IMG/VR virus record: IMGVR_UViG_3300009008_000029
Span: 1-64,000 of that record
Strand: one strand, 5' to 3'
DNA from: a virus
DNA: 64,000 nt
The position numbers were made by a program, and so were the translations under genes. The notes under the pieces are model-generated. The model was not told where the DNA came from. It was given only the letters and a program-made list of their open reading frames with translations, and ran no database searches. Within the stretch, counting starts at the first letter, position 1. The number at the start of each line of letters is the position of its first letter. This document shows positions 44-13,231 of this stretch, piece after piece.

Positions 44-502
44 ATGCCGAGATATGACTATCAGTGCGAATGCGGTTTGATCTTTGAGGGTTACGCTTCT
101 ATGACCGACAGCATGTCCCAGAAGGAATGTCCTGATTGCGGCCAGATGGCGGGCAGAGCAGTCCCGGAGTCGGTTGAAGGGAACTTTGACCACGACGTGT
201 CCGGCCCGGTCCCCCAGAACACGGGTATTTCCCAAATCGATGCCATTGCGGATCGAGCCATCGGGAAATCAGCACGTAAGGGGTGGGAGGTCGCCGACAA
301 GCGGGTCCAAGACAAACGCAGGGTACTAGCCGGGTCGGAAGCCACCGGGCATGACCTTTCCCGGAATCCTGATGGGAGTTACAGGGTTATGACCCCGGAG
401 GAGAAGGGTGTCCATGAACGGTCTCAGGAAATCCACAGCAAGGCCATGACGGAGCTTCTGAAAAAGAGGAAAAAGGCAAAGGCTGCGCCCCCCTCCCCGT
501 AG
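44..502 (+). CDS. FmdB-family zinc-ribbon protein
   Basis: N-terminus MPRYDYQCECG...CPDCG matches the MPxYxYxC...CPxCG FmdB/Zn-ribbon pattern. RBS AAGGAGG directly upstream. Confidence 0.8.
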   Translation: MPRYDYQCECGLIFEGYASMTDSMSQKECPDCGQMAGRAVPESVEGNFDHDVSGPVPQNTGISQIDAIADRAIGKSARKGWEVADKRVQDKRRVLAGSEATGHDLSRNPDGSYRVMTPEEKGVHERSQEIHSKAMTELLKKRKKAKAAPPSP

Positions 503-509
503 TGTCCCC

Positions 510-540
510 CACTAGTTCTTCAATAGAGCCGATACAATAG
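510..540 (+). promoter_or_regulatory. putative phage late-promoter motif, copy 1 (CACT-N7-CAAT-N13-TAG)
   Basis: Same spacing as the copies at 10847, 43555 and 53679, though this is the most divergent copy. Lies upstream of the sheath leader. Confidence 0.4.
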
Positions 541-730
541 CGGATGGAGTCCGTTAAAAAGGACAATACCCGCTCGTGAGGAGTGCCCGGCTTTGTGCCG
601 TGGAAAGATGTAGATGGACGGCCTATGAATGCATCGATTGTGCTGGGTTTCCCCTGTTTCGGCAGGTGGTATGACAGACGGATGAACGGGACGGACATTG
701 ACAAGTTTGGGCTAGACTCCGCTAGAGCGG
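541..730 (+). ncRNA. putative structured RNA element A (sheath 5' leader)
   Basis: Non-coding on the + strand. Core 638-670 matches 11881-11914 at 26/34 positions. Apical hairpin CCUGU-UUCG-GCAGG. Long-range pairings 546-551/715-720 and 585-596/701-712. Confidence 0.55.
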
Positions 731-750
731 ATTGAAAACGAGGTGAGAAG

Positions 751-3700
751 ATGCCATTTCCGGGGAAGAATTACGCCCCTCCGGGGCCGTACACGCAAAC
801 GAAGTTCGAAAACCCGTTGGGTCAGGCACTGGAGAGCCTGAAGATTCCCGTCATTATCGGTGAGGGGAACGAATCGCTCTTCCAAGAGGATCTGGAGATT
901 GTCCGGGGTTCCTCCGCTGTGATCGATCAGCGGGTGGTGAACGAGGACCAGACAGGCCGGGCCGTATCCAGTGTCTCCGCAACCGGGGTTGTGACTCTTG
1001 GTTCGTGGAACGGTGCTCTCGACAAGTTTCAAGTAGTCAACCGTCCCATCGTATCTGGTGACGGTACGGGGACTACGACGACGAGCCGAGGCGATGTTCT
1101 GGTGACCGTCAACAACCAGCCGGTCGTAGTGTTGTCCGTTGACGGGACCACCGGGATCATTCAGATTGCGGATACCCCGGCGGCAACCGATGTAGTGCGT
1201 TGCACGTACTACTTCAACCGGACCGATACCCTCGTCACCGACGATGTATCCTCTCAGGTTCCGACCGAATCGGCGACCGTCCGGGCACAGTCCGGCATTG
1301 CCGATGTAGACGCCCCGAACGCTGGTGTTGTTGTCATCGATATGCACGGTGACATCCTCAGCGACGAGGGAGCCGTTATTGTACCAGCCAACAACGTCCT
1401 GTCCCTGACGGTTGACGGTGTTGCTCGTACCGTGACGATTCCCGCCAAGAGCGACTACACGATGGCCCAGATCGCTGCGGCAATTACGGCGGCCAGTGCT
1501 GGGAGCCTGACGGCCTCGACGTTTGCTGACAACTACGGGCACTCGGCCCTGATGCTTCTGGCTGACCACAGTGTTGCGGTCGGTGACGGGAGTGCCAACG
1601 GGGATCTGGGTCTGATCAGCGGTCAGGCTGACAACCGGGTTTCGACCTTCTACACCATGAACGGTCCCATCGTTGATGGTTCCGGCGGTGGTGTTGTGAC
1701 CACCGACCCCGCCCATGTGACGGTTCGGGTCAACGGTACACAGGTCATTCCCACATCGGTTGACGGTGCTACCCGAGCGGTGACGCTGGCGGAGGCTCCC
1801 GCAGCCAATGCCACCGTATCCATCCAGTACTACTGGAACACATGGCAGGACACTTTCGATTACCTCGCCCACGTTGGGGTTACTGCGGTATCCCGTTGCG
1901 GCGACGTTCCCGGAAGCTCCGCCTACACCGAAGAAGCTGATTTCATCCTCCAGAATGACCGTATCGTCTGGGGTACGGCTGCTTTGACAGAAGCTGGGCT
2001 GACAACGACGGGTGCAACCCTGTTCGATGACACCCAGATCACCAACACTCTGATCGACAACCGCAACTTCCTTGGTGCTTGCACCGCAGTTACGGACTCG
2101 ACCGGTGGTGTTGCTACCGATTCCCGCACGGAGTTCCAGCTTCCGTTTACCCCGACGCTGGGTAACGGGCGTGACACCCCGTTGGGGCAGAGCCTGTTCC
2201 AGACCATCAGCAACAGCCGCATTGACCTCCCGGTCAACCGCCCGGATGTTGTTTGGGCATACTGGGGCTACGATGAGCAGGATGCACTGGTACGGGGCCG
2301 TGTCACGGTGACCAAGGTAGAGGGTACCGTGATCACGTTGGCTTCCGCTGTGCCTCCGGGTGCCAACGTCTATGCGACCCAGTACTACAACACCCTGACG
2401 GACGAGACCTACACGCTGACCTGTGCAACGGCTGGTGTGTCCGGGGTTGGCCAGTACACGATGCAGGATTCTGGTGAGAACGACGTGTACGGGGCAACGA
2501 TGGTTGCCGGGAGCAAGGGCGCAGGGCTGACCGGGATCACGGTTGAGTTCCCGTCCGGGTCCGAGATGACCCCTGATTTCCGTCTGGAGAGCAACAGTGC
2601 CACGACGTTCGTAGGCCCAGTTGAAGAAGTTGTGACCGTTGAGTTTGCTGCACGGACGGCGACTCCGGCGAAGTGGGCTGTTCCGGGTTCTGGGAACTAC
2701 TCCTTCATTTCGGGTCAGTCTGACAAGCTCCGCATGACCGTCCATAGTGTGGATGTTGGTGGGGCTACGGGACTCAACCTGAGTAGCCCTTCGGCAGCCA
2801 CGACCCATACGGGAGGCTTCTTTGCCACCTTGGTCGGGGATGAGATCGTCTACTCCAAGGAGAGCGGTGACGCAGCCACGGCGGGTCAGGGGTTCACCAT
2901 TTCGACCTCCGAAGAGTTCGTCCTTCTGGTGGACGATGCCACGGTGACGGTCAAGACCAACGTGGTGGATGACGTTGATGCGGGCTACCTCGCCCGGTAC
3001 ATCAACGACGCAGCCAGCGGGCACAACTCCACAGCAGCGGCCAACGAAGCCGCAACCGATACCATCACTTTGGATGTTGACCTCGCCAGCAATCAGGACG
3101 ACTACTACAATGGTTGGAAGATTGTCATCGGGAACGGTGCGAGTGCGGTTACAGCCGGGCAGGTTACGACCATTACGGACTACGTAGGGTCCACAAATGT
3201 TGCTACCGTGAGTCCCGCTTGGGAAGGCGGGGACCAGAAGATCGATCTGGGTGACGCCTACTACATCTACAACCCGGACGCACGTTCATCCATGAAGGGT
3301 GCAACCCGGTTCAACGGTCCCACCGTGATCACGGCGAATGAGTTCGACCAGATGCGGGTCATCTACAAGGGTGACAATTCAACGGAGGCAATCCTTAGCC
3401 TTCAGTTGGATGAAGCCACTTACGCCTCCGCCACGACATTGGCCGCTGAGGTCAACACGCAGTTGGCGGCGGCAGTTGCTACGGCGATTGGTGCGGGCAA
3501 TGTCACCATCAAGGGTCTGATCATCGAGTGTGCTGCGGATAGTGATGGTCGGATGGAGTTCAAAATCCAGCTTCCCGGTGTGGATGGTTCGGGGTTCATT
3601 CAGTTCCTCTATCTCGATCCCGCTTCCGACGCCAAGGATTTCTGTGTCCTTGCGGGTCTCGACAAGGCAGCCTCGGCAGGTGCCGGTCAAGCGGCTCTGA

Positions 3701-6063
3701 TTCAGGGTCCGATTGCCCGTACTTACGAGTGCCCGGATACGGGGGCAACCAAGAACTTCGACCGGATCATCCTCCGTAACCGGCTCCTGCCGGGTGGTGG
3801 CGGTTCGGTGGCCCCTTGGGACATCGTAGACCAGTGCAAGTTGGAAGTTCAGACCGGGAACACCAAGTGTGCCCTCTCCACGGGGATGACCGGTACCGCC
3901 GGTTCCCGTGCCGTTGTCAACCCGGCAACCATGTTGGGTCGGATCGGCATCACCGGTGGTCAGGATTCTGAGGGTGACCCTGTTGTGACCCTCTACAACG
4001 GTGAGGGAACCCAGCCCGCCAACAACGTGTTTGATTTTGAGATGGACGGAACCCCCGTTACCGTGACCTTCACAGCGGCGGCGGATGGTACGGCCACTCC
4101 CATCGGACCGGAAGGGACCGCAGGGTCGCTTCTGTATCAGATCGTTGCGGCGATGGCAGCCGTTCCAGGTGCGCCTTTCGGGAATGCAACCGCAATCGGT
4201 GAAACCAACTTGCTGGCTCGCATCGAGGGTTGCGGGATTCGGTTGACCAGTGCAGTGTCTACGGCGGCTTCCAATATCACCATCGGCTCTGGTTCAGCGA
4301 ACACCATCCTCGGGTTTGGGTCCGGTTCCTCAGCGTCCCGGACGCTTGTGACGCCGAAGGCTCTGGCTTCGGCACTCAACGCCCATCGGAACAGCACGTT
4401 CGCCACATGGTTGAACGTGTTGGCCACCACGACCGGGAGCTTCTCCAGGTATGGCATCGCCAGCACGGTGCTTGATGCTGCGGGTGCAGAGTACTTGTAC
4501 CTTCAGGATGCACCGACACTGGTAGCCAATCTCGGTGCTGCATCCAACGTGTCCGTGCAGACCCCAACGGGCAGTGTGCAGGATGCCCTCCGATATGATG
4601 CTGGGCTGAATGCTACCGCTGGTGACGGTGCTGTAGGGGAACCTGCAATCGATGGGTTTACCGTGACCTCCGGGAACCCGGATGGTTCCGGCTCCGCCAA
4701 CACCTCCATTCTCAACGACGGCACAGGTCAGGACGGTGTTGTAGGCCAGACCTACCGGGATGACGTGACGGGCCTTACTTTCACGATCCTTCCGAGGGGT
4801 TGGAGCAGTGACCAGACCGGTCCTTGGGTTTCATACCCGACTGGTGACACTGCCCTCTTCCGTATCCGGGTCTCCAAGACCATGACCGCCAACAGCAACA
4901 TCCCTCAGAATGCCGTTCCGGGCGTTGAGATGAAGGTTGCCAACACGGTCGGCGTTGACGTAGGGGACACGGCTACCGTTCAGACGTTTGAACGGAGCGG
5001 GAATGAACCCGCAATCGGCGACCTGTACTACGCCTCCTACACCTACACCAAACAGGATTTCACCACGCAGTTCTTCACCAAGATGTCTGCGGTTGAGAAT
5101 GCGTTCGGTGCAGGTGTCCCGGACAACCCCGCATCGCTCGGTACGTATCTGGCGATGATCAACGGGGCGGTTCTCGTAGGGGTCAAGCAGGTGCAGCGTG
5201 CCTCTGGGTCGAGTCAGGCCAGTCTGGTGAGCTACCGCTCGGCGGTAGACGAGCTTGAGGGTGTCCTGCCCGGATTCGTCAACCCCGACATTATCGTCCC
5301 GATGCGGGGCGACTCGACGGACCTCTATACGTTGATCAAGCGGTCCTGCGAGAAGATGTCCAGTATCCGGTACAAGTCGGAACGGACGGCCATCGTAGGG
5401 ACGGCAGCCGGTACGCTGCCAGCGGACGTCAAGCTGATGGCTCAGACGTTGGGCAATGCACGTATGCGGATCGTGTACCCGGACATGGCAGTTCTGTCCA
5501 TTCAGGATGGTGTCACCGGGGAAGCCACCGAGTACGTTGTTGACGGGACGTTCGTTGCCGCAGCCCTCACTGGTTCGGTTGTGAGTCCGAACCTCGACGT
5601 TGCGACACCTTGGACAGGACGGAAGCTGGTAGGGTTCACACAGCTTGCCCGGATTCTGGACCCGGTCGAGATGAATCAGGTCGCTCAGACTGGTGTGACG
5701 GTCATGGAGACCAAGCCGCCGTTCCTGCGGGTACGTCACGGTTTGACCACCGACATGTCCAACATCATGCAGAAGACCCCGACGGTGATGATGATCGCCG
5801 ACGAGGTTCAGCGTCAGGCCCGCAACGTGATGGAGAGTTTCGTAGGGATCAAGTTCCTCGGAACTGTCTTGAGTCAGGTCGAAGGTCGGTTGGCGATGAT
5901 GTTCAAGCGGATGGTTGCGGCCCAGATCGTAGCCGCCTACACGGGCATCAAGGCCAACGTCAGTGCCGCCGACCCGACGGTTGCCGAGGTAGAGGCATGG
6001 TACAGCCCGGTCTGGCCGCTCCTCTATCTGGTGATCACCTTCCACATGCGGTCTAGCGTATAA
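751..6063 (+). CDS. contractile tail sheath protein (1770 aa, with many inserted beta domains)
   Basis: N-terminal Y.PPG.Y...IPVIIG.G segment and C-terminal sheath-type domain (RVRHGLTT...IADEVQRQAR...FVG.K...YSPVWPLLYLVITF). RBS GAGGTG. Lies upstream of the tube gene. Confidence 0.88.
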   Translation: MPFPGKNYAPPGPYTQTKFENPLGQALESLKIPVIIGEGNESLFQEDLEIVRGSSAVIDQRVVNEDQTGRAVSSVSATGVVTLGSWNGALDKFQVVNRPIVSGDGTGTTTTSRGDVLVTVNNQPVVVLSVDGTTGIIQIADTPAATDVVRCTYYFNRTDTLVTDDVSSQVPTESATVRAQSGIADVDAPNAGVVVIDMHGDILSDEGAVIVPANNVLSLTVDGVARTVTIPAKSDYTMAQIAAAITAASAGSLTASTFADNYGHSALMLLADHSVAVGDGSANGDLGLISGQADNRVSTFYTMNGPIVDGSGGGVVTTDPAHVTVRVNGTQVIPTSVDGATRAVTLAEAPAANATVSIQYYWNTWQDTFDYLAHVGVTAVSRCGDVPGSSAYTEEADFILQNDRIVWGTAALTEAGLTTTGATLFDDTQITNTLIDNRNFLGACTAVTDSTGGVATDSRTEFQLPFTPTLGNGRDTPLGQSLFQTISNSRIDLPVNRPDVVWAYWGYDEQDALVRGRVTVTKVEGTVITLASAVPPGANVYATQYYNTLTDETYTLTCATAGVSGVGQYTMQDSGENDVYGATMVAGSKGAGLTGITVEFPSGSEMTPDFRLESNSATTFVGPVEEVVTVEFAARTATPAKWAVPGSGNYSFISGQSDKLRMTVHSVDVGGATGLNLSSPSAATTHTGGFFATLVGDEIVYSKESGDAATAGQGFTISTSEEFVLLVDDATVTVKTNVVDDVDAGYLARYINDAASGHNSTAAANEAATDTITLDVDLASNQDDYYNGWKIVIGNGASAVTAGQVTTITDYVGSTNVATVSPAWEGGDQKIDLGDAYYIYNPDARSSMKGATRFNGPTVITANEFDQMRVIYKGDNSTEAILSLQLDEATYASATTLAAEVNTQLAAAVATAIGAGNVTIKGLIIECAADSDGRMEFKIQLPGVDGSGFIQFLYLDPASDAKDFCVLAGLDKAASAGAGQAALIQGPIARTYECPDTGATKNFDRIILRNRLLPGGGGSVAPWDIVDQCKLEVQTGNTKCALSTGMTGTAGSRAVVNPATMLGRIGITGGQDSEGDPVVTLYNGEGTQPANNVFDFEMDGTPVTVTFTAAADGTATPIGPEGTAGSLLYQIVAAMAAVPGAPFGNATAIGETNLLARIEGCGIRLTSAVSTAASNITIGSGSANTILGFGSGSSASRTLVTPKALASALNAHRNSTFATWLNVLATTTGSFSRYGIASTVLDAAGAEYLYLQDAPTLVANLGAASNVSVQTPTGSVQDALRYDAGLNATAGDGAVGEPAIDGFTVTSGNPDGSGSANTSILNDGTGQDGVVGQTYRDDVTGLTFTILPRGWSSDQTGPWVSYPTGDTALFRIRVSKTMTANSNIPQNAVPGVEMKVANTVGVDVGDTATVQTFERSGNEPAIGDLYYASYTYTKQDFTTQFFTKMSAVENAFGAGVPDNPASLGTYLAMINGAVLVGVKQVQRASGSSQASLVSYRSAVDELEGVLPGFVNPDIIVPMRGDSTDLYTLIKRSCEKMSSIRYKSERTAIVGTAAGTLPADVKLMAQTLGNARMRIVYPDMAVLSIQDGVTGEATEYVVDGTFVAAALTGSVVSPNLDVATPWTGRKLVGFTQLARILDPVEMNQVAQTGVTVMETKPPFLRVRHGLTTDMSNIMQKTPTVMMIADEVQRQARNVMESFVGIKFLGTVLSQVEGRLAMMFKRMVAAQIVAAYTGIKANVSAADPTVAEVEAWYSPVWPLLYLVITFHMRSSV

Positions 6064-6069
6064 CAAGGG

Positions 6070-6101
6070 GGGAGGGCATCTACGGATGCCCTCCCTATTT
6101 T
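6070..6101 (+). terminator. intrinsic terminator after the sheath gene
   Basis: Perfect 11-bp stem GGGAGGGCATC/GATGCCCTCCC with a c(UACG)g tetraloop, followed by TATTTT. Confidence 0.8.
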
Positions 6102-6326: not shown

Positions 6327-6752
6327 CTAAAGAATCTTGACCGATTCAGGAGTGGCCGATTCCTTTGCAGGGATAACGACCCTGACGATGCCATTGGCGA
6401 TGGTTGCGTTGGCCTTGGTGGGGTCGTAGATGTCGGGGAGGCGTGCTTCAGCAACGAAAGTATCCTCCTCCGGGATCAGTTTCCCGTCACCCCGGACAGG
6501 CACCTCAATCTGAAGTGACCCTGCGACGACCTCGATTTTCGACCCCTTCTTGATGGCCCCCGGAACGGTGGCCACATAGGTCATCTGTTCCTTTCCGTAA
6601 TCCACACGGTGAGACCCGAAACGAGTGGTGAACATGTCGCTCTGCGGTTCCGAAGGGTTGAGTGAAACACCATCAGATCCAAAGACCTGATGCATCAAAC
6701 CGTCGGGGCCGAAAACATCTCCGAAAAGGTGGTTGTGTCTTTTGCATGTCAT
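6327..6752 (-). CDS. small heat-shock (Hsp20/alpha-crystallin-like) protein
   Basis: VPG...KIEV...LQI...F..ARLP..YDP..A.A.IANGIVRVVIP pattern and C-terminal VKI (IxI-like) motif. RBS AAGGAGGA. Confidence 0.75.
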   Translation of the reverse strand: MTCKRHNHLFGDVFGPDGLMHQVFGSDGVSLNPSEPQSDMFTTRFGSHRVDYGKEQMTYVATVPGAIKKGSKIEVVAGSLQIEVPVRGDGKLIPEEDTFVAEARLPDIYDPTKANATIANGIVRVVIPAKESATPESVKIL

Positions 6753-6782
6753 GGCTAATCCTCCTTGCCGTCTACGTCCTTG

Positions 6783-6810
6783 AAAGTAGTAGAGAAAGGA
6801 GGGTTGTCAA
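6783..6810 (-). promoter_or_regulatory. sigma70-type promoter for the Hsp20-like gene
   Basis: Minus-strand TTGACA-N16-TACTTT about 30 nt upstream of the start codon. The -35 box overlaps the stop codon of the HD gene. Confidence 0.6.
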
Positions 6811-7412
6811 GCGTCCGTGCGATGGGCTCGGATGTCCGCTGCACGGGTCAGCATCCCATGAATGTTGCGTTGCAGACGCTCCTCAATCCAGACACCGAGG
6901 TCGTAGAACCCGCCGCTGATGCCTTTGCCCCGTGCCACCATGATCTGGATCAGGGGGCAGACGAGTTCGATGGTCTCGTAGGCGTACTTCTCCAACCATT
7001 CGGGGCTGGAGGCGATGTTGAAATCCATCGTGTTGTGAAGCCGGTCGAACAACTTGATGGCCAACACACGGGGATGAGCCAGAGACAACATGGTGAAGTA
7101 CACGTCGGGATTGGTCTCACCGATCTTCGATTTGGAGAGCATGGCAACGGTCCCGGCCACGTTCCGCCCATACCGTTTGACCAGATCATCCCAAGAGAAA
7201 CCCGGTGAGTCCTCTTTGATGTCATGGAGCAAGGCCGCACACTTGTCATCGTCCGAGAAGAAAAAGGGACTCTCTTCCATCAATTCCAAGATGCGGAGCG
7301 GGTGGGTGTAATAGGGAACGCCTGTGTTCTTGCGCTTCTGCCCTTCGTGAAGCTCCTTCATCCACGCAATGCAGTCCCTTACCTTAGCCGTTCGGATTTT
7401 GATAGATGGCAT
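6807..7412 (-). CDS. stand-alone RelA/SpoT-type HD hydrolase (small alarmone hydrolase/Mesh1-like)
   Basis: Motifs HEGQKRK..G.PY..HP, AALLHDIKED and IKLFDRLHN. Start placed at ATG 7412 behind a GAGGA RBS rather than at 7460. Confidence 0.85.
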   Translation of the reverse strand: MPSIKIRTAKVRDCIAWMKELHEGQKRKNTGVPYYTHPLRILELMEESPFFFSDDDKCAALLHDIKEDSPGFSWDDLVKRYGRNVAGTVAMLSKSKIGETNPDVYFTMLSLAHPRVLAIKLFDRLHNTMDFNIASSPEWLEKYAYETIELVCPLIQIMVARGKGISGGFYDLGVWIEERLQRNIHGMLTRAADIRAHRTDA

Positions 7413-7419
7413 TTCATCC

Positions 7420-7707
7420 TCACTTGAGCCTCCATACCGGTTGGCCCTGTATGAACCCATAAGAAACCTTCTTTCCTGTGTCTTCGAAAAGCCCGGAGGT
7501 CATCAGTGCCTCCTGATAGGCGGGACGGATATCGTGGTTGAGGATGAACTCACCCTCCTCCAACGGGATCTCTACGACATTGATGCTGATGGTCGCATAC
7601 GGACCCTCGTACTCGGATACGGAACGAACGGCGATATTGCCGGTGGCGTAGTTGAGAACGTCGATATAGTGGGTTTCATCCTGAAACGTCAGTTTTTTGA
7701 TGCTCAT
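7420..7707 (-). CDS. DUF4313-like small protein
   Basis: EGPYATISIN...GEFILN...GLFEDTG...YGF..P pattern resembles DUF4313. RBS GGAGGT. Confidence 0.6.
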   Translation of the reverse strand: MSIKKLTFQDETHYIDVLNYATGNIAVRSVSEYEGPYATISINVVEIPLEEGEFILNHDIRPAYQEALMTSGLFEDTGKKVSYGFIQGQPVWRLK

Positions 7708-7772
7708 TTGGCACCTCCATCTAACCTCTCTACTCCTACGCCCGCAGGGATGAACCCCCGCAACAAAATAAT

Positions 7773-7812
7773 TCGACAGAAAACTTGACAGTGAATTTGA
7801 CAGTGTTATCTT
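7773..7812 (+). promoter_or_regulatory. sigma70 promoter overlapped by three direct repeats (putative operator)
   Basis: TTGACA (7785)-N16-TATCTT (7807) with extended -10 TG. TCGACAG/TTGACAG/TTGACAG start at 7773, 7785 and 7797 (12-bp period). Confidence 0.7.
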
Positions 7813-7834
7813 AGGGGGCGTGAGGAGGTGAAAG

Positions 7835-8239
7835 ATGGAGAGTCAAAAATACTCATTGGCGGAGTTGGCGGAGGTTGCGGATATCACGGGCCGTAAGATT
7901 CGCTACTACATTGCGGAGGGGGTGCTTCCGGGTCCGGTATCGAGAGGACGTCAGGCTCGGTACACCGAGGAGCACCGGAATCTGTTAGGTGAGATTCAGA
8001 GGTTACAGAAAGAGGGGCGTTCGTTAGAGGAGATCCGTGACTGTCTCAAGGGGCCACGTCCTACGTCTGTTCCACGGTCGGTGACCCCAACGGCGGAGCA
8101 CCCCACCGTGTGGGAGGAGTATGGAGTAGCTGAAGGCATGCAGTTGCGGCTGCGGAGTGATGCACCTCTGGGCCGTAGACAACAGTTCAATCAGATTTTG
8201 GCGGCAGCCCGCCAGATAGTAGAAGGGAGGGAATCATGA
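7835..8239 (+). CDS. MerR-family HTH DNA-binding protein
   Basis: YSLAELAE...RKIRYYIAEGVLPGP..RG..ARY..EH...L..I..LQ.EG.SLEEIR. RBS GAGGAGGT. Confidence 0.9.
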   Translation: MESQKYSLAELAEVADITGRKIRYYIAEGVLPGPVSRGRQARYTEEHRNLLGEIQRLQKEGRSLEEIRDCLKGPRPTSVPRSVTPTAEHPTVWEEYGVAEGMQLRLRSDAPLGRRQQFNQILAAARQIVEGRES

Positions 8240-10773
8240 ACACAGCAGTTGCAGGGAATGTTCTTCTCGACCCTATGACCCGAACAGAGATCCCTCTGGC
8301 AATGCAACGGATGGGACTGACGGGTCGTGTGGGTCCAAATGGTGGTGTGTTGACCGTGACACACCATTTCCAGTGCAAGGGTATCCGTCCGATGGAAGCC
8401 TTGTACGTCTTCCAACTCCCCAGAGGGGGTGCCCTACGCAAGTTTCTGGTGAAGGGTAAGGATTTTCAGATCGAGTCCCAGTTATCACCCCGTGCGGAAG
8501 CCAAGAAGACGTATGAGGAGGGTGTAGACGCCGGGCATTTGTCCACACTGGCCGAAACCAGTCTGGATGGCGTTGTGACACTGGCTATCGGACAGGTGCG
8601 TCCCGATGAGACGGTTTCTGTTGCCGTTGAGATTGTGGGCGGTGTGGAGACCCGTGACCAAGGGTACCGATTCCGGTTCCCGTTCACGTTGGCTCCCAGC
8701 TATCATTCCAAAGCCAATGCGGTACCAACGGCGGGGGGTGGCAAACTGGAGCTTCCCGGTGATGTGTTTGAGGATCTGGTCTTACCAGAGTGGCGTGAAG
8801 ATGCTTCGGGTCTCCACGAGGTAACCTTCCAGATGAGGGTCGAGACCGACGGCAAAGTAGGGACAATAGCGTCCCCCTCTCACAACATCACGGTTCAACC
8901 GAATGACGATGGAACGGCTGACATCTGGTTGGCGGGGCTTCACGACCAGCCGGATAGGGATCTGGTTGTGGATGTTACAACCAAGGAGCCTTCAGTTGTT
9001 GTGCATGTAGATGAGTCTTTGACTACGGACAAGCCGTCGAAGCCGTCGGTCAAGGGGAGTCCACGGTGGAAGATCAGTGTTCCGTCCCATCTGGTCCCGC
9101 AACAGCCGCAGCAACCCCGGCGGGTTTGTTTCGTGCTGGACCGTTCGGGTTCCATGAACGGGCCTCGGATAAACAAAGCGAAGTTGGCGTTACAGGCTTG
9201 TCTGACGGGGCTTCAGAGCATCGATCAGTTCGGGTTGCTGGCCTTTGACCACAATGTCTCCGTCTTTCATGAACAGATGGCCGAGGCTTCTGACAGCAAC
9301 CGGACGGAAGCCATCCGATTCCTGAATGGCATCCAGTCCGGTGGCACAACCGAGTTGTCCACTGCGTTGGCTGCGGCGGTCCAGATTCTGGGCGGTCCGG
9401 GCGGGGACGTGTTCCTGATCACGGACGGGGAGGTTTGGGAGACCGGTCCTATCATCGAACAGGCCGCAGCATGCGGCAGCCGTATTCATGTGTTGGGTGT
9501 GGGTGAAGCCTCACAGGATCGTTTTCTGGCGTCACTGGCCCGCCGGACGGGTGGGGTCCAGAAAATGGTCAACACGACCGAGGACGTGGCAACAATGGCG
9601 TTGGAGTTGTTCAATGCGGTGCGTACTCCTCGTCTGATGGAAGTGTCGGCTCTCGTTGAGACGGCGAGCGGGGGTGAGACCCAGAAGCATGACATCGGAA
9701 CGGTTTGGGAGGGCCGACCCATTGAGATCATGGACAATGGTACTTCCGGGACGTACCTCCCGGTCCGTGTGGGCTTTTGCTGGGGTCCGAGTGAGAATAC
9801 AACGGTAGACCTTGCGGGGGCTTGCCGTAAGGTTCCTGACGGCGAGTTGGCCCTCGTATGGGCCGGACAGCAGGTAGAGGATCTGGAAGCGGCTCTCGAT
9901 ATGACAAAGAGCGGACCGGCCCGTGTAGCCGTTGAGCAGGAGTTGAAGGAACTGTCGGCGGGGTACGAGCTTGCCAGCCGTGTCATGTCACTGGTCGCCG
10001 TCCATAAGAGGGTCGGGGATCAGGCGGGTGAGACCCCGGAGCAGAAGATGGTTCCGGTAGGTATGCCTTCGGATATGGTCGGTCAGGGGGGAGTTTTCGG
10101 CAAGGGTGTCCTTCGGTCAGCGTCCCTGAACTTCTGTTCCTCCACCGGTGGAGGAACTACCTCTAGGGGTCTGGACATGGCGGATGCTCATCCGAGCACG
10201 TCATATGCAGCGGCTACCAATACTGCGTCCCTCAGTTGTGAGACGCAGACCAGCGGGAGTTGGTCGTTGGATACGTCGACCACAAAGGGTCACCTCGGCG
10301 GCACCCGGAGTCGGAAAATGTCTGACCCGTACAAGAGCATCGTTTTTAACGATACGATGGCTGAGAATCTCCTCCAGATGGCGGGAGGTGTCATTGCCTA
10401 TCTGGGTGACCTCAAGAGTGACGGTGGGTTGCCGGGCGATGATATGGCGACTCGGATGGCAAAGACGGCGGTACTGGCCAATCTGGTTCTCCAGAGGAAA
10501 ATCCAGTCCCGTTCCAGTGCTTTCACAAAGCACCTCATCAAGATGGCTGATTTCTTGGACGCCCATAAGGAGTCTTTCCCGGAACTCAACCGGGTCGGGT
10601 GGAAGACCTGTGAAATCATCGGGGCCATTGTTGATGTGTTTCGGGCGGGGACTGAGTTGCTTCCCGCTACTGATGTTGAATGGGACCGTGAATTTGCGGC
10701 CTTCTATCAGAAAGCGACCTTGTCAGCGGATGAGGTCGCCGACATCTGGACGAATTTGTCTCCCCTGAGTTGA
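8236..10773 (+). CDS. VIT + vWA domain protein
   Basis: VIT-like N-terminus (EALYVFQLP...EAKKTYE...G.L..L) and intact MIDAS residues (DRSGS at 9139, GGT, LITDG). ATGA overlap with the MerR gene. Confidence 0.9.
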   Translation: MNTAVAGNVLLDPMTRTEIPLAMQRMGLTGRVGPNGGVLTVTHHFQCKGIRPMEALYVFQLPRGGALRKFLVKGKDFQIESQLSPRAEAKKTYEEGVDAGHLSTLAETSLDGVVTLAIGQVRPDETVSVAVEIVGGVETRDQGYRFRFPFTLAPSYHSKANAVPTAGGGKLELPGDVFEDLVLPEWREDASGLHEVTFQMRVETDGKVGTIASPSHNITVQPNDDGTADIWLAGLHDQPDRDLVVDVTTKEPSVVVHVDESLTTDKPSKPSVKGSPRWKISVPSHLVPQQPQQPRRVCFVLDRSGSMNGPRINKAKLALQACLTGLQSIDQFGLLAFDHNVSVFHEQMAEASDSNRTEAIRFLNGIQSGGTTELSTALAAAVQILGGPGGDVFLITDGEVWETGPIIEQAAACGSRIHVLGVGEASQDRFLASLARRTGGVQKMVNTTEDVATMALELFNAVRTPRLMEVSALVETASGGETQKHDIGTVWEGRPIEIMDNGTSGTYLPVRVGFCWGPSENTTVDLAGACRKVPDGELALVWAGQQVEDLEAALDMTKSGPARVAVEQELKELSAGYELASRVMSLVAVHKRVGDQAGETPEQKMVPVGMPSDMVGQGGVFGKGVLRSASLNFCSSTGGGTTSRGLDMADAHPSTSYAAATNTASLSCETQTSGSWSLDTSTTKGHLGGTRSRKMSDPYKSIVFNDTMAENLLQMAGGVIAYLGDLKSDGGLPGDDMATRMAKTAVLANLVLQRKIQSRSSAFTKHLIKMADFLDAHKESFPELNRVGWKTCEIIGAIVDVFRAGTELLPATDVEWDREFAAFYQKATLSADEVADIWTNLSPLS

Positions 10774-10846
10774 ACCCACCCCGTTAATTTGCCTTTGACC
10801 TGTCCTCATAGATAGGAGAGGGCAGGTCGATATCCCGCCTCGGGAT

Positions 10847-10918: not shown

Positions 10919-11773
10919 ATGGCAGATCCAAATGCGGGAAAGAATCAGGACATCAACCCCCAGAACGGGGTAGGTGGGACGTCGTACCTGTATGATTTCG
11001 GAACCTCACCCAATACCCGGACAGCGGTCTCCCAGAAGGTTCGCATCCTGACGCCTCACTACGGGTCGTCACAGGCGATGCACCAGATGGGCGTCCTGTC
11101 ATCCTTCAACCCCACCCAGAGTCGGACGGTTGAGCCGGTTCGGGGCGTGGGTTTCGGGGATAAGGTAGCGGAATTGGTGCCGAGTGTGACGGAACCGACG
11201 ACGGGTTCCTTTGAGCGTGCCCTCCTGTACTTGTGCAATCTGTGGCAAGCAACGGGATACGCAGCGGGCGTCGACGGCCCAGTCAGGTCGTTGGCTCACC
11301 ACAAGTGGCCGTTCGATATGGAGCAGCAGCTTGTGTTCAGCACGCTGGCTGATCAGGACATGGGCGGGAACGCCAACACTGGCTACGGTGGTTCCGCCGG
11401 GAATTTCGACGGCGGCGTGAAGGCCATCGGATTCCCGCAGGTAACCCACAATGGGAGTCAGGGGTCACCGGATCTGGTGCCTGAGAATCGGGGTCACTCA
11501 GCCATTATCACCATTTACGAAGCCGCATGGTTCACCTCTTGGTCCGTGACGTTCTCCAAGGACGCCGGAATGATCATGGAGTCCGGGGACGTCAGCATCA
11601 GTGACGTTCACGATTTCGCCAGTGTCTACGGTGAGTTCCTCGCCACTGGTAACGACCCCACAATCGGCCAGTTGGGTTCCATCCGGTTCGCTGAAGGGTT
11701 CGCTGAGCCGAACATCGCATCGGCAGGTGGCGGCATTGAGGGTGGTAACACCATCTCGGCCTTTGTCAGCTAG
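10919..11773 (+). CDS. tail tube protein
   Basis: SQKVRI...GVLSSF...SRTVEPVRGVGFGD..AELVP...ERALLY...WPFD...TIYEAAWF resembles myovirus tube proteins. Sits between the sheath and the chaperone/tape measure genes. RBS GGAGG. Confidence 0.8.
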   Translation: MADPNAGKNQDINPQNGVGGTSYLYDFGTSPNTRTAVSQKVRILTPHYGSSQAMHQMGVLSSFNPTQSRTVEPVRGVGFGDKVAELVPSVTEPTTGSFERALLYLCNLWQATGYAAGVDGPVRSLAHHKWPFDMEQQLVFSTLADQDMGGNANTGYGGSAGNFDGGVKAIGFPQVTHNGSQGSPDLVPENRGHSAIITIYEAAWFTSWSVTFSKDAGMIMESGDVSISDVHDFASVYGEFLATGNDPTIGQLGSIRFAEGFAEPNIASAGGGIEGGNTISAFVS

Positions 11774-11816
11774 GTATAGTGAGTATGACCGTGGGCGTGG
11801 CCCGCTGGATTGACAG

Positions 11817-11996
11817 ATAGAGAGAGCAGCCTCTGCGGCCTTGTGTAACAGACCGACAGATGGAAATGTGAACGAACAAGTTGTGCTGTAGTTCCCCTGC
11901 TTTTTGCGGGTGGTTAGATGGGAAAGGACGAAACAGATAGGCACAGATCGCATCTTTGCGCTGTCCATAGGCTCGTCGCAGCCGCTGTTTCTCTAT
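11817..11996 (+). ncRNA. putative structured RNA element B (rod-like, paralogue of element A)
   Basis: Nested pairings 11817-30/11984-96, 11833-39/11975-81, 11855-59/11961-65, 11866-71/11948-53 and 11881-87/11940-46, plus apical hairpin CCUGC-UUUUU-GCGGG. Core shared with 638-670. Confidence 0.6.
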
Positions 11997-12016
11997 AACA
12001 CGGATTGGAGGAAGGG

Positions 12017-13231
12017 ATGCAGATCTCTCTAGAGGCACTGGGTCAAGCTATTGCACCCATTGAACAACTGGGACAGGGGGAGTTGACGTTTAAGGTGGGG
12101 GCCACCCCTATCACCTTGAGGATTATGACTCCTGAAGCTGAAATCGATGTGCAACGGTTTGCCAACGAGACCTTGGACGATGACGGGAACATGGCTGCCA
12201 CAGCGGATTATCTGGAACGCTTCAAGTTGGCGGTGTTGTCGCATGCCATCGTTCAGGTCGGGGATCTGGATCTCCGGGGTGTGAAGACCGTTGAGACGGG
12301 CGAGTTTCTGGATGATGGGACGACGCCCAAGAAAATCACGAAGATTAGGGCTGTCCGGGAAACGATCCTCAAGTGGTCCGGTTCCATCCGGCTCGCTGTG
12401 TTCCGTAAGTACGGGGAACTGGTAGAAGAGGTGGAACGCAAGGCTGAGAAGGCCGTTGAGTTCAAACCTACGGACATCGATGCTGAAATTGAGCGGGTTA
12501 AAGCCCGGCTCAAAGAACTGGAGGATGAGAAAGCCAAGGGGTTGGAGAATCCCGTTGAGACCCCCGTGGGCCGAATGTCCAAAGCCGTAGCCGCCAATGA
12601 TGCTTTGGAACAGGCGGAGACCAGCGAGAAGCTGAGTCGGATAGCCGCCGGGCAAGTCGAGCCTGAAGAGGTAGAACCGGCACCCACACCGCAGAAACCG
12701 CCCCAAACGGCCCGACAGCCCGTCACACCGACCCAAGCGGCCCCTCCGCCCCCGCCTAAGCCACAGGAGCCACCCTCGGCCCCTGTCGCACCCCAACAGG
12801 CACCTGAGCAGCCGTTACCGGCCCCTCCGCCCCCGCAGGACTCATTTGTAGATTCATCGGACCCGGATCAGATGAACGCAGCGGTTGCGGAAGAGAATCG
12901 CCGGTTGATGGCGGCCCGGATGGGAACGTCGGCGGCCCAGATGCCGGACTCGGTACTTGCTGCCGCCGCTCAGGTTGGAATCGCCAAGCCTCCGCACCTT
13001 GAGGCCCAGAAAGCGATGGAAGAGTTGGAGAACACCCCGACGGAGGATGCGACTGCGAAACCCGAACCGGACCCCCAGCCGGATCAGCGTCCCACTTTCC
13101 GGCTGCCCGTCGAAGAAGTTGGGCCTCATACAGGGGGCCAGACGGCGGGTGAAGCACCTCAAGTGACGTTGAATGATCCAAATGCGGGGAAAGGAACACG
13201 TAACCCTCGTTTCAGGACGCCGCAACAGTAG
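12017..13231 (+). CDS. putative tail assembly chaperone with Pro/Gln-rich disordered C-terminal half
   Basis: Position between tube and tape measure genes. Start moved to ATG 12017 behind GGAGG. Folded N-terminal domain, coiled coil, then a Pro-rich tail. Confidence 0.55.
   Translation: MQISLEALGQAIAPIEQLGQGELTFKVGATPITLRIMTPEAEIDVQRFANETLDDDGNMAATADYLERFKLAVLSHAIVQVGDLDLRGVKTVETGEFLDDGTTPKKITKIRAVRETILKWSGSIRLAVFRKYGELVEEVERKAEKAVEFKPTDIDAEIERVKARLKELEDEKAKGLENPVETPVGRMSKAVAANDALEQAETSEKLSRIAAGQVEPEEVEPAPTPQKPPQTARQPVTPTQAAPPPPPKPQEPPSAPVAPQQAPEQPLPAPPPPQDSFVDSSDPDQMNAAVAEENRRLMAARMGTSAAQMPDSVLAAAAQVGIAKPPHLEAQKAMEELENTPTEDATAKPEPDPQPDQRPTFRLPVEEVGPHTGGQTAGEAPQVTLNDPNAGKGTRNPRFRTPQQ

Follow-up and report, generated by a model that had tools for sequence, protein, structure and literature searches.

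A covarying RNA module in two tail-gene leaders of a huge phage and a candidate translational switch

In the phage T4 leaders of gene e, soc, gene 49 and I-TevI, the 3′ arm of a hairpin carries the Shine-Dalgarno (SD) sequence and masks a late gene on some RNAs, and a late promoter situated inside the hairpin removes the 5′ arm from the late RNA. At mom of phage Mu, the small zinc-binding protein Com binds a hairpin located 5′ of a translation-inhibiting stem and opens the ribosome site. The nut sites of lambda and putL/putR of HK022 are composed of a short linear box and a following hairpin, with two copies at two operon starts, while the Bacillus STAB-SD and the polypurine stabiliser of phage SP82 present a strong SD-like purine tract with no conserved start codon after it. 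Riboswitch ‘ON’ platforms have a domain closed by a long-range helix, the 3′ strand of which alternatively pairs with the SD, together with covarying helices and conserved unpaired blocks.

Here we describe two leaders, A and B, in the tail-gene cluster of a huge phage, which share features with all of these systems. Leader B resembles the riboswitch platforms in its competing folds, covarying helices and conserved unpaired blocks; it has no Rfam riboswitch match, and its trigger may be a protein or none. As in T4, the SD forms part of a hairpin, on its 3′ side, and this fold was predicted for nearly all of the 30 distinct relatives, but release would come from a distant competing strand; the loops of these SD hairpins are 6–12 nt long and no promoter-like box was seen in them. 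A zinc-ribbon gene is a conserved neighbour and recalls Mu com/mom, whereas the leader here is far larger and contains several modules. The box followed by a hairpin, in two copies, recalls nut and put, but the loop is not conserved, there is no terminator to be read through, and the structure is tied to the SD. Finally, the strong SD-like tract resembles STAB-SD and SP82, but here it is paired within a hairpin.

Two leaders with a shared, covarying module

The window analyzed, 64,000 nt in length, comprises the first 64 kb of an IMG/VR record of 75.8 kb in total, with a CheckV completeness of 14%. Contigs of its relatives reach 528–536 kb, one of these being rated complete, which indicates that the window is a fragment of a huge phage. 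Nearly all window genes are carried on the + strand, and ARAGORN found no tRNA or tmRNA in the window. The public sequencing runs that contain the stretch are DNA metagenomes only, with no RNA run among them.

Leader A (503–750) lies between the gene of an FmdB-type zinc-ribbon protein of 152 aa (44..502, + strand), which is directly 5′ of it, and a sheath-like ORF of 1770 aa (751–6063, +). Leader B (11774–12016) lies between a tube-like ORF of 284 aa (10919..11773, +) and an ORF of 404 aa that starts at 12017 (+), with a tape-measure-like gene further downstream. The 152-aa protein matched Pfam Zn_ribbon_8 (E = 2.9e-8, 34.0 bits), just missing the gathering cut-off of 34.4, and weakly matched the PHROG ‘FmdB-like transcriptional regulator’; a zinc-ribbon homologue, at identity down to 36%, was found directly upstream of the sheath-like gene in 5/5 relatives. 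The sheath and tube labels are provisional and come only from protein-language-model look-alikes in the Atlas (scores 0.94–0.95), where the look-alikes of the 284-aa protein are clusters carrying Phi812_tail_tube or DUF2001, a lead only. Searches of Pfam, PHROGs and PDB sequences gave no match for either protein, and the AF2 model of the tube-like protein was unusable (pLDDT 29.5).

Directly 3′ of the sheath-like gene, at 6066–6100, is a canonical intrinsic terminator (GGGAGGGCATC-tacg-GATGCCCTCCC then TATTTT), so that this gene appears to form a transcription unit by itself, served by a polymerase of the host type. The region between the sheath-like and tube-like genes (6327–10773) holds non-structural genes and includes two minus-strand ORFs; a MerR-family regulator (7835–8239) and an 845-aa VIT plus von Willebrand A protein (8236–10773) are situated there. 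For comparison across relatives, 12 viral contigs were collected with the sheath-like gene and 13 sheath leaders were aligned, and 15 viral loci plus 80 metagenomic loci, out of 222 detected, were collected with the tube-like gene; a related-locus search with the 404-aa protein returned none.

The preliminary description had noted that positions 638–670 and 11881–11914 are alike at 26/34 positions. This was confirmed by our own local alignment, in which 27/34 columns are identical and which scored 31, compared with 17.7 ± 2.4 in dinucleotide shuffles (1/1000 reached it) and, over both strands of the window, with at most 28 for any of 514 other tiles of 243 nt. The flanking blocks CGGC(T/C)TTGTG, TGGAAA(GA)TGT and GATG...GGACG do occur in identical order in both leaders, and the differences in the apical hairpin keep the pairing as described (U-G vs C-G and U-A vs U-G, with loops UUCG and UUUUU). 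A covariance model, R1, was built from 12 relatives with the window sequence excluded and was run over the 64 kb on both strands with filters off. Its top two matches were 635–678 (17.6 bits) and 11878–11922 (16.0 bits), so that a relatives-only model ranks elements A and B first and second in the window. By folding energy, neither element taken alone clearly outperforms its shuffles (z = −1.68 and −0.49).

The shared module consists of a box, (C)UUGNGCU, then 5–6 nt, a hairpin of the form CC-stem-loop-stem-U-GG and a tail, UYNRAY. Scanning 80 sources with R1 yielded 51 matches, among which 95.4% of the hairpin cells are paired, compared with 84.0 ± 0.8 in shuffles, in an alignment that was fitted to the model, which favours structure. 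Double changes were found in 7/8 pairs, with 49 compensatory cells compared with 12.8 ± 3.0, and 0/500 shuffles were as good; sliding the partner columns lowered the pairing to 45–68%. The pair adjacent to the bulge is UA in 33 cases, CG in 10, GC in 4 and AU in 2, and the stems, as they appear in the individual sequences, are highly diverse (CCUGC/GCGGG, UCUCCC/GGGAGA, ACCUG/CAGGU, UUCCCUAUU/GGUAGGGAA and GCCUC/GGGGC). The hairpin therefore covaries strongly. Because it includes 22 G·U cells, which would be A·C mismatches on the opposite strand, the structure is that of the sense RNA.

The matches show almost no variation in the outer CC/GG pairs or the bulged U, and their 5′ arm is always pyrimidine-rich (C/U), while the loops vary from 3 to 12 nt (UUCG, GGAA, UUUUU, CUCG and ACCA, for example). 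The tail consensus U-Y-N-R-A-Y derives from 27 sequences. Paired with the canonical 16S anti-SD, the 3′ arm plus UGG reaches a mean of −9.2 kcal/mol; the true SD region reaches −6.7, and windows taken at random from the leaders −2.6. Rfam 15 gave nothing at gathering in the window and nothing relevant at E ≤ 10 in either leader, and a search of ten related loci gave no match at E ≤ 1. The earlier proposal of an undescribed RNA family is thus supported by a conserved, covarying hairpin of the sense strand that lacks an Rfam match.

The module is also bound to its locus. In the relative with a complete 536-kb genome R1 had a single match, located behind the tube-like gene, which supports the proposed tie to tail genes, and three other records had one or two matches; a generic hairpin-plus-tail pattern had 20 matches in the complete 536-kb genome, approximately the chance level. 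Such a distribution makes the element locus-specific and rules out a general role as promoter or terminator. Nor is an intrinsic terminator indicated in either leader, since the hairpins are followed by UGG-UYNRAY rather than by U runs, and the terminator scan lists none there.

Several other candidates were discarded. A leader peptide or uORF was rejected, as an ATG is present in the tail of only 9/27 sequences, the leader lengths modulo 3 are distributed 8/11/8 and no frame is conserved. A CsrA-site reading of GGAUGU was dropped because GGA is often GAA, and a pseudoknot of a loop ACAG with a box CUGU was inconsistent within the L081 group. Start-stop pairs (AUGUAG/AUGUGA) occur at a RAUGUR motif, which lies 3′ of hairpin A1 of leader A and 5′ of box 1 of leader B, at 607–612, at 11866–11871 and in many related leaders; they are frequent but not universal, and the motif is therefore probably recognized as sequence rather than translated. 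A pattern match was also seen at 6773–6828 of a 9.5-kb contig (L032, IMGVR_UViG_2767802472_000002), where a box abuts CC-CCAAU-gcaaa-GUUGG-U-GG with the tail UCAGAU.

Architecture and competing folds of leader B

The features of leader B, all on the + strand, follow one common architecture in approximately 38 distinct leaders located after tube homologues of 64–80% protein identity: the box, the hairpin, a T-Y-N-R-A-Y tail, a second box and an SD hairpin just before the start codon. Its conserved unpaired blocks are the boxes, the tail and purine-rich joints. Conservation in related genomes, one of the points on which the preliminary description could be judged, was thus found for element B in dozens of contigs; for element A it is patchy, as detailed below.

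Just 3′ of the tube stop codon is a −10-like TATAGT (11775..11780), and at the matching place (columns 49–60 of A7, a sequence-only MAFFT alignment) the relatives carry extended −10-like sequences, TGGTATGAT, TGGTAAGAT or CGGTATAAT. These may form an internal promoter for the post-tube genes, as judged from sequence likeness; a sigma-70 scan found no promoter at 11775–11780. Next is a hairpin of the module form, M0 (11789..11814), reading CC-GUGGGC-gug-GCCCGC-U-GG with the tail AUUGAC, and L014, L017 and L021 have hairpins there with different stems. It is followed by a conserved upstream block (11817..11839), which carries the motif GG(G/A)AACAGC, here GAGAGCAGC, and forms the 5′ strand of a long-range helix, P1, or alternatively a local hairpin.

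Box 1, UUGUGCU (11881..11887), has a TTG..CT that is invariant in 34 aligned leaders. Element B has as its core the hairpin B2, CC-CCUGC-uuuuu-GCGGG-U-GG with the tail UUAGAU (11894..11919), which is the R1 match and shows the family covariation; its 3′ arm is SD-like, at −10.1 kcal/mol. Box 2, UUGCGCUGUCCA (11956..11967), is a direct repeat of box 1 conserved in 34 leaders, and in most of the approximately 38 distinct leaders a second box, CTTGNGCTGTCCA, lies 65–84 nt after box 1. The 3′ strand of P1 (11975..11996), identified by duplex energies and column covariation, overlaps the anti-SD arm at 11984–11994, and the SD of the 404-aa gene, GGAGGAAGGG (12007..12016), forms the 3′ arm of the occluding hairpin.

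Module number varies among leaders, from 1 to 4, and one or two extra CC-stem-U-GG hairpins were seen in the leader B homologues L022 (2887–2943), L031 (2992–3050), L055, L060 and L070. Five loci with tube homologues of 48–70% identity (L025–L028 and L030) have post-tube gaps of 70–130 nt without boxes or hairpin, which indicates that the leader is confined to one sub-clade.

The SD hairpin was predicted with a mean z of −2.3, 80% of the values falling below −1, and its stems differ among relatives (GCUUCC/GGGAAGC, CCGUCUCCC/GGGAGACGG, CUCCAC/GUGGAG and others). The anti-SD arm and the sequence preceding it (11975–11996) are complementary to the conserved GG(G/A)AACAGC...GGUGGCC block (11817–11839). 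These pairings were evaluated by a cross-sequence control, in which duplex energies within each sequence were compared with those of pairings permuted across sequences. P1, the upstream block with the anti-SD region, had −27.3 within and −21.6 ± 0.66 across sequences (p<1e-4), and the anti-SD with the SD had −15.7 within and −12.4 ± 0.46 across (p<1e-4); the arms of the local alternative hairpin of the upstream block also gave p<1e-4, and unrelated segment pairs, as negative controls, gave p=0.42 and p=0.65. Helices for the boxes were rejected by the same control, box 2 with the upstream purine-rich block failing (p=0.18) and box 1 with the middle region passing only marginally (p=0.03).

On fixed columns of A7 (118–126/353–361), which comprise nine pairs 150–200 nt apart, P1 is paired in 84.9% of cells, compared with 80.1 ± 1.0 in shuffles, and has 15 compensatory cells, compared with 4.7 ± 1.8, a count reached by 0/500 shuffles; slid partners are paired in 45–61%. 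Double changes in 5/9 pairs were reached by 23/500 shuffles, a moderate signal on fixed columns. Matched P1 variants are apparent by eye, such as GGGAAAUAACC/GGUUAUUUCCC in L086, GGGA(C)GACGG/CCGUCUCCC in L054 and GAGAGCAGC/GCUGUUUCUC in the window, with GGGAA.../...UUCCC in most relatives. From the full MAFFT alignment, RNAalifold retrieved no more than 3 pairs, owing to misalignment of the variable-length stems, and the covariance model and cross-sequence duplex controls were therefore used instead.

Because one strand pairs with both its P1 partner and the SD, the two folds are mutually exclusive, and the pairings of the SD-masking strand in both are supported across sequences, a property expected of a riboswitch-like leader. 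B2 and both boxes lie inside the domain closed by P1. The predicted fold of the whole window leader has P1 formed and the SD open, and the equilibrium openness predicted for the window SD is 0.86 with the 5′ part of the leader and 0.27 without it. Among the relatives the mean openness is 0.34 with the full leader and 0.26 without the 5′ part, the closed form prevailing in most. The two states are close in energy in these predictions, and the choice of fold may depend on a factor or on folding order.

A patchy second copy of the module in leader A

The best-conserved non-coding block among the 13 aligned sheath leaders is a box at 516..525 (+), TTCTTCAATA (GTTTTTGCTTCAATA in relatives), which appears promoter-like by its sequence. 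Downstream of it is hairpin A1 (586..609, +), CC-CGGC-uuugu-GCCG-U-GG with the tail AAAGAU, which was also found in the sheath leaders L002, L005, L006, L007 and L008. In these it occupies the interval between the promoter-like box and a TTTGGGCT box, retaining the CC/T-GG form and a RATGTG tail, and compensatory changes in relatives (CGGU/ACCG, CGACU/GGUUG and CGGCA/UGUCG) maintain its stem. The TTTGGGCT box is common to most sheath-leader relatives.

Element A contains the box UUGUGCU (638..644, +), identical to 11881–11887 and within the R1 match 635–678, and, as its core, hairpin A2 (651..675, +), CC-CCUGU-uucg-GCAGG-U-GG with the tail UAUGAC, which is the best R1 match in the window. In L002 and L003 the loop of A2 is GGAA and the closing pair is C-G; its 3′ arm pairs with the canonical 16S anti-SD at −12.2 kcal/mol. 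The box and A2 together make up an 85-nt block, which the window shares with the 89% relatives L002 and L003 and which is missing in the 65–71% relatives L004–L013. Other relatives, of 61–69% and 44% identity, have similar CC/T-GG hairpins in their sheath leaders, and in two of those the best R1 match lies in the sheath leader, although weakly (12.8–13.8 bits, E 0.2–0.4). Element A is thus a patchily distributed second copy of the module, which is reused in sheath leaders.

A second box in leader A, UUGGGCU (707..713, +), belongs to TTTTGGGCT(G/A)AAC, which is conserved in most aligned sheath leaders but not in L006. The SD of the 1770-aa gene, GAGGUGA (740..746, +), contains a GAGGT invariant in 13 leaders, and in these aligned leaders no conserved hairpin that would occlude it was seen; the leader B mechanism is therefore not directly transferable to element A. 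The long-range pairings that had been claimed for element A proved unsupported: the pair 585–596/701–712 overlaps the conserved hairpin A1 (586–603) and is broken in the 89% relatives L002 and L003, and the pair 546–551/715–720 is perfect in the window but has lost one pair in L002, without compensation.

The tube-gene leader carries, at 10799–10831, a hairpin of 9 bp (CCUGUCCUC-loop-GAGGGCAGG) with UCGAU behind it, a degenerate module without the bulged U, which is the fourth-best R1 match in the window (10.7 bits, E 1.5).

A candidate switch and its alternatives

We lean, if only slightly, towards reading elements A and B as cis-acting structured parts of sense-strand leaders in the tail-gene cluster of a clade of huge (~0.5 Mb) environmental phages, with leader B acting as a translational switch. 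B2, best read as a conserved recognition or structural module at the tip of leader B, would cap a domain of ~180 nt closed by P1, within a leader of about 200 nt. With P1 formed, the SD would be free and translation of the 404-aa gene on; with the local upstream hairpin and the SD hairpin formed, translation would be off. Leader B would in this way set the amount of post-tube protein made from an abundant tail transcript. The fold would be selected by a factor acting on the conserved boxes and the clamp, and this could be a protein (such as the neighbouring FmdB-type zinc-ribbon protein or a tail protein) or a ligand, or else the order in which the leader folds as it is transcribed. The conserved zinc-ribbon gene directly upstream of the sheath gene is a candidate selector on account of its place in 5/5 relatives, and nothing more. 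Presence of the module in the sheath leader of the window’s lineage would bring both genes under one input.

The first alternative is a static structure without any switch, which we consider rather unlikely. The SD hairpin would permanently damp a low-copy post-tube protein, while the GC-rich hairpins M0, B2, A1 and A2 would stabilize the mRNA or mark processing sites or 3′ ends, protecting abundant sheath and tube messages. Since the SD is mostly paired in most relatives, the SD hairpin being predicted closed at equilibrium with or without the 5′ part, the off state may simply be constitutive; moreover, one hairpin directly follows the tube stop codon, others are near the presumed 5′ ends of the leaders, and stable intercistronic hairpins are common in T4-type phages. 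Against this, covariation is seen in both P1 and the local upstream hairpin although they compete for one strand with the SD hairpin, which is hard to account for unless alternative folds exist; conservation of the unpaired boxes, of the CC/UGG clamp and of the tail also suggests specific recognition over bulk stability.

The switch reading could also be extended into a post-transcriptional circuit of tail assembly, an idea that we regard as speculative and unlikely as a whole. The riboswitch-like leader of ~200 nt would sense a phage-made factor or metabolite through its boxes and CC/U-GG modules, and reuse of the sensor in the sheath leader would allow tail components to be made in step with assembly; the sensed factor could be the FmdB-type zinc-ribbon protein or an assembly intermediate, e.g. 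free tube or chaperone protein.

It is doubtful, and in our judgement quite unlikely, that the modules are instead operators at which a phage RNA-binding protein, such as the FmdB-type zinc-ribbon protein or a tail protein, binds several leaders at their clamp, bulged U and tail and directly represses or activates translation, like Mu Com at mom or T4 RegA at its targets, with no role for P1. Hairpins bound by proteins typically combine an invariant base, here CC/U-GG, with a freely varying loop and upper stem, each sheath and post-tube leader has 1–4 modules with a degenerate one in the tube leader, and the zinc-ribbon gene lies directly 5′ of the sheath gene in the 5/5 relatives. However, this gene neighbourhood is weak evidence for a binding partner, the function of the FmdB family is not established, and the covariation of P1 would be left unexplained.

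A transcription signal is improbable. Under this reading the box and hairpin would modify RNA polymerase where two tail transcription units begin, in the manner of lambda nut (boxA/boxB) or HK022 put or by forming a hairpin-stabilized pause site, or else the UGG-UNNGAU tails would serve as promoter or pause elements of a −10-like type. A linear box with a hairpin behind it, found in two leaders of a single phage, does recall nutL/nutR and putL/putR. The tails are similar to TGnTNNNAT, and in relatives the first hairpin has a tail that makes a good extended −10 (TGGTATGAT, CGGTATAAT). But recognition of boxB depends on a conserved purine-rich loop, whereas the loops here vary in length and sequence, and the box (C)UUGNGCU, with its free fourth position, does not match the boxA consensus (CGCUCUUA / UGCUCUUUA). 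The tails of B2 and A2, moreover, mostly lack the second-position A that a −10 needs, leader B offers no terminator for read-through, the intrinsic one behind the sheath gene is of the normal type, and a general polymerase signal would hardly be expected as a single copy in a 536-kb genome.

A trans-acting small RNA, as the preliminary description had offered beside its new family at tail genes (the part that holds), or a small palindromic mobile element landed by chance in two intergenic regions, is very improbable: A2 does look like an 85-nt insertion relative to the 65–71% relatives and module number differs between leaders, but there is no terminator or defined 3′ end, the element continues straight into the ribosome-binding site and is structurally linked to that downstream SD, its position is fixed relative to the same genes across 44–80% protein identity, and only 1–2 copies occur per genome.

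Leaders with competing SD-masking folds are a well-known device; the family, its host clade and its place in the tail cluster appear new. A 2023 catalogue of ~8,500 candidate structured RNAs from IMG/VR (PMC10690425) draws on the same data source and describes the same kind of covarying intergenic phage motif; the text of the paper names no tail-gene motif, and the catalogue itself may contain the element.

The leaders described here provide an RNA structure that covaries across the clade, keeps its position within the tail-gene cluster and has two competing folds that are testable. To our knowledge, almost nothing is known about gene regulation in half-megabase phages. As a minimum, the element can be put forward, with good support, as a new cis-regulatory family for Rfam. 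Should the switch prove real, it would join the few known RNA-based controls of phage tail protein ratios and would give a handle on regulation in uncultured phages.
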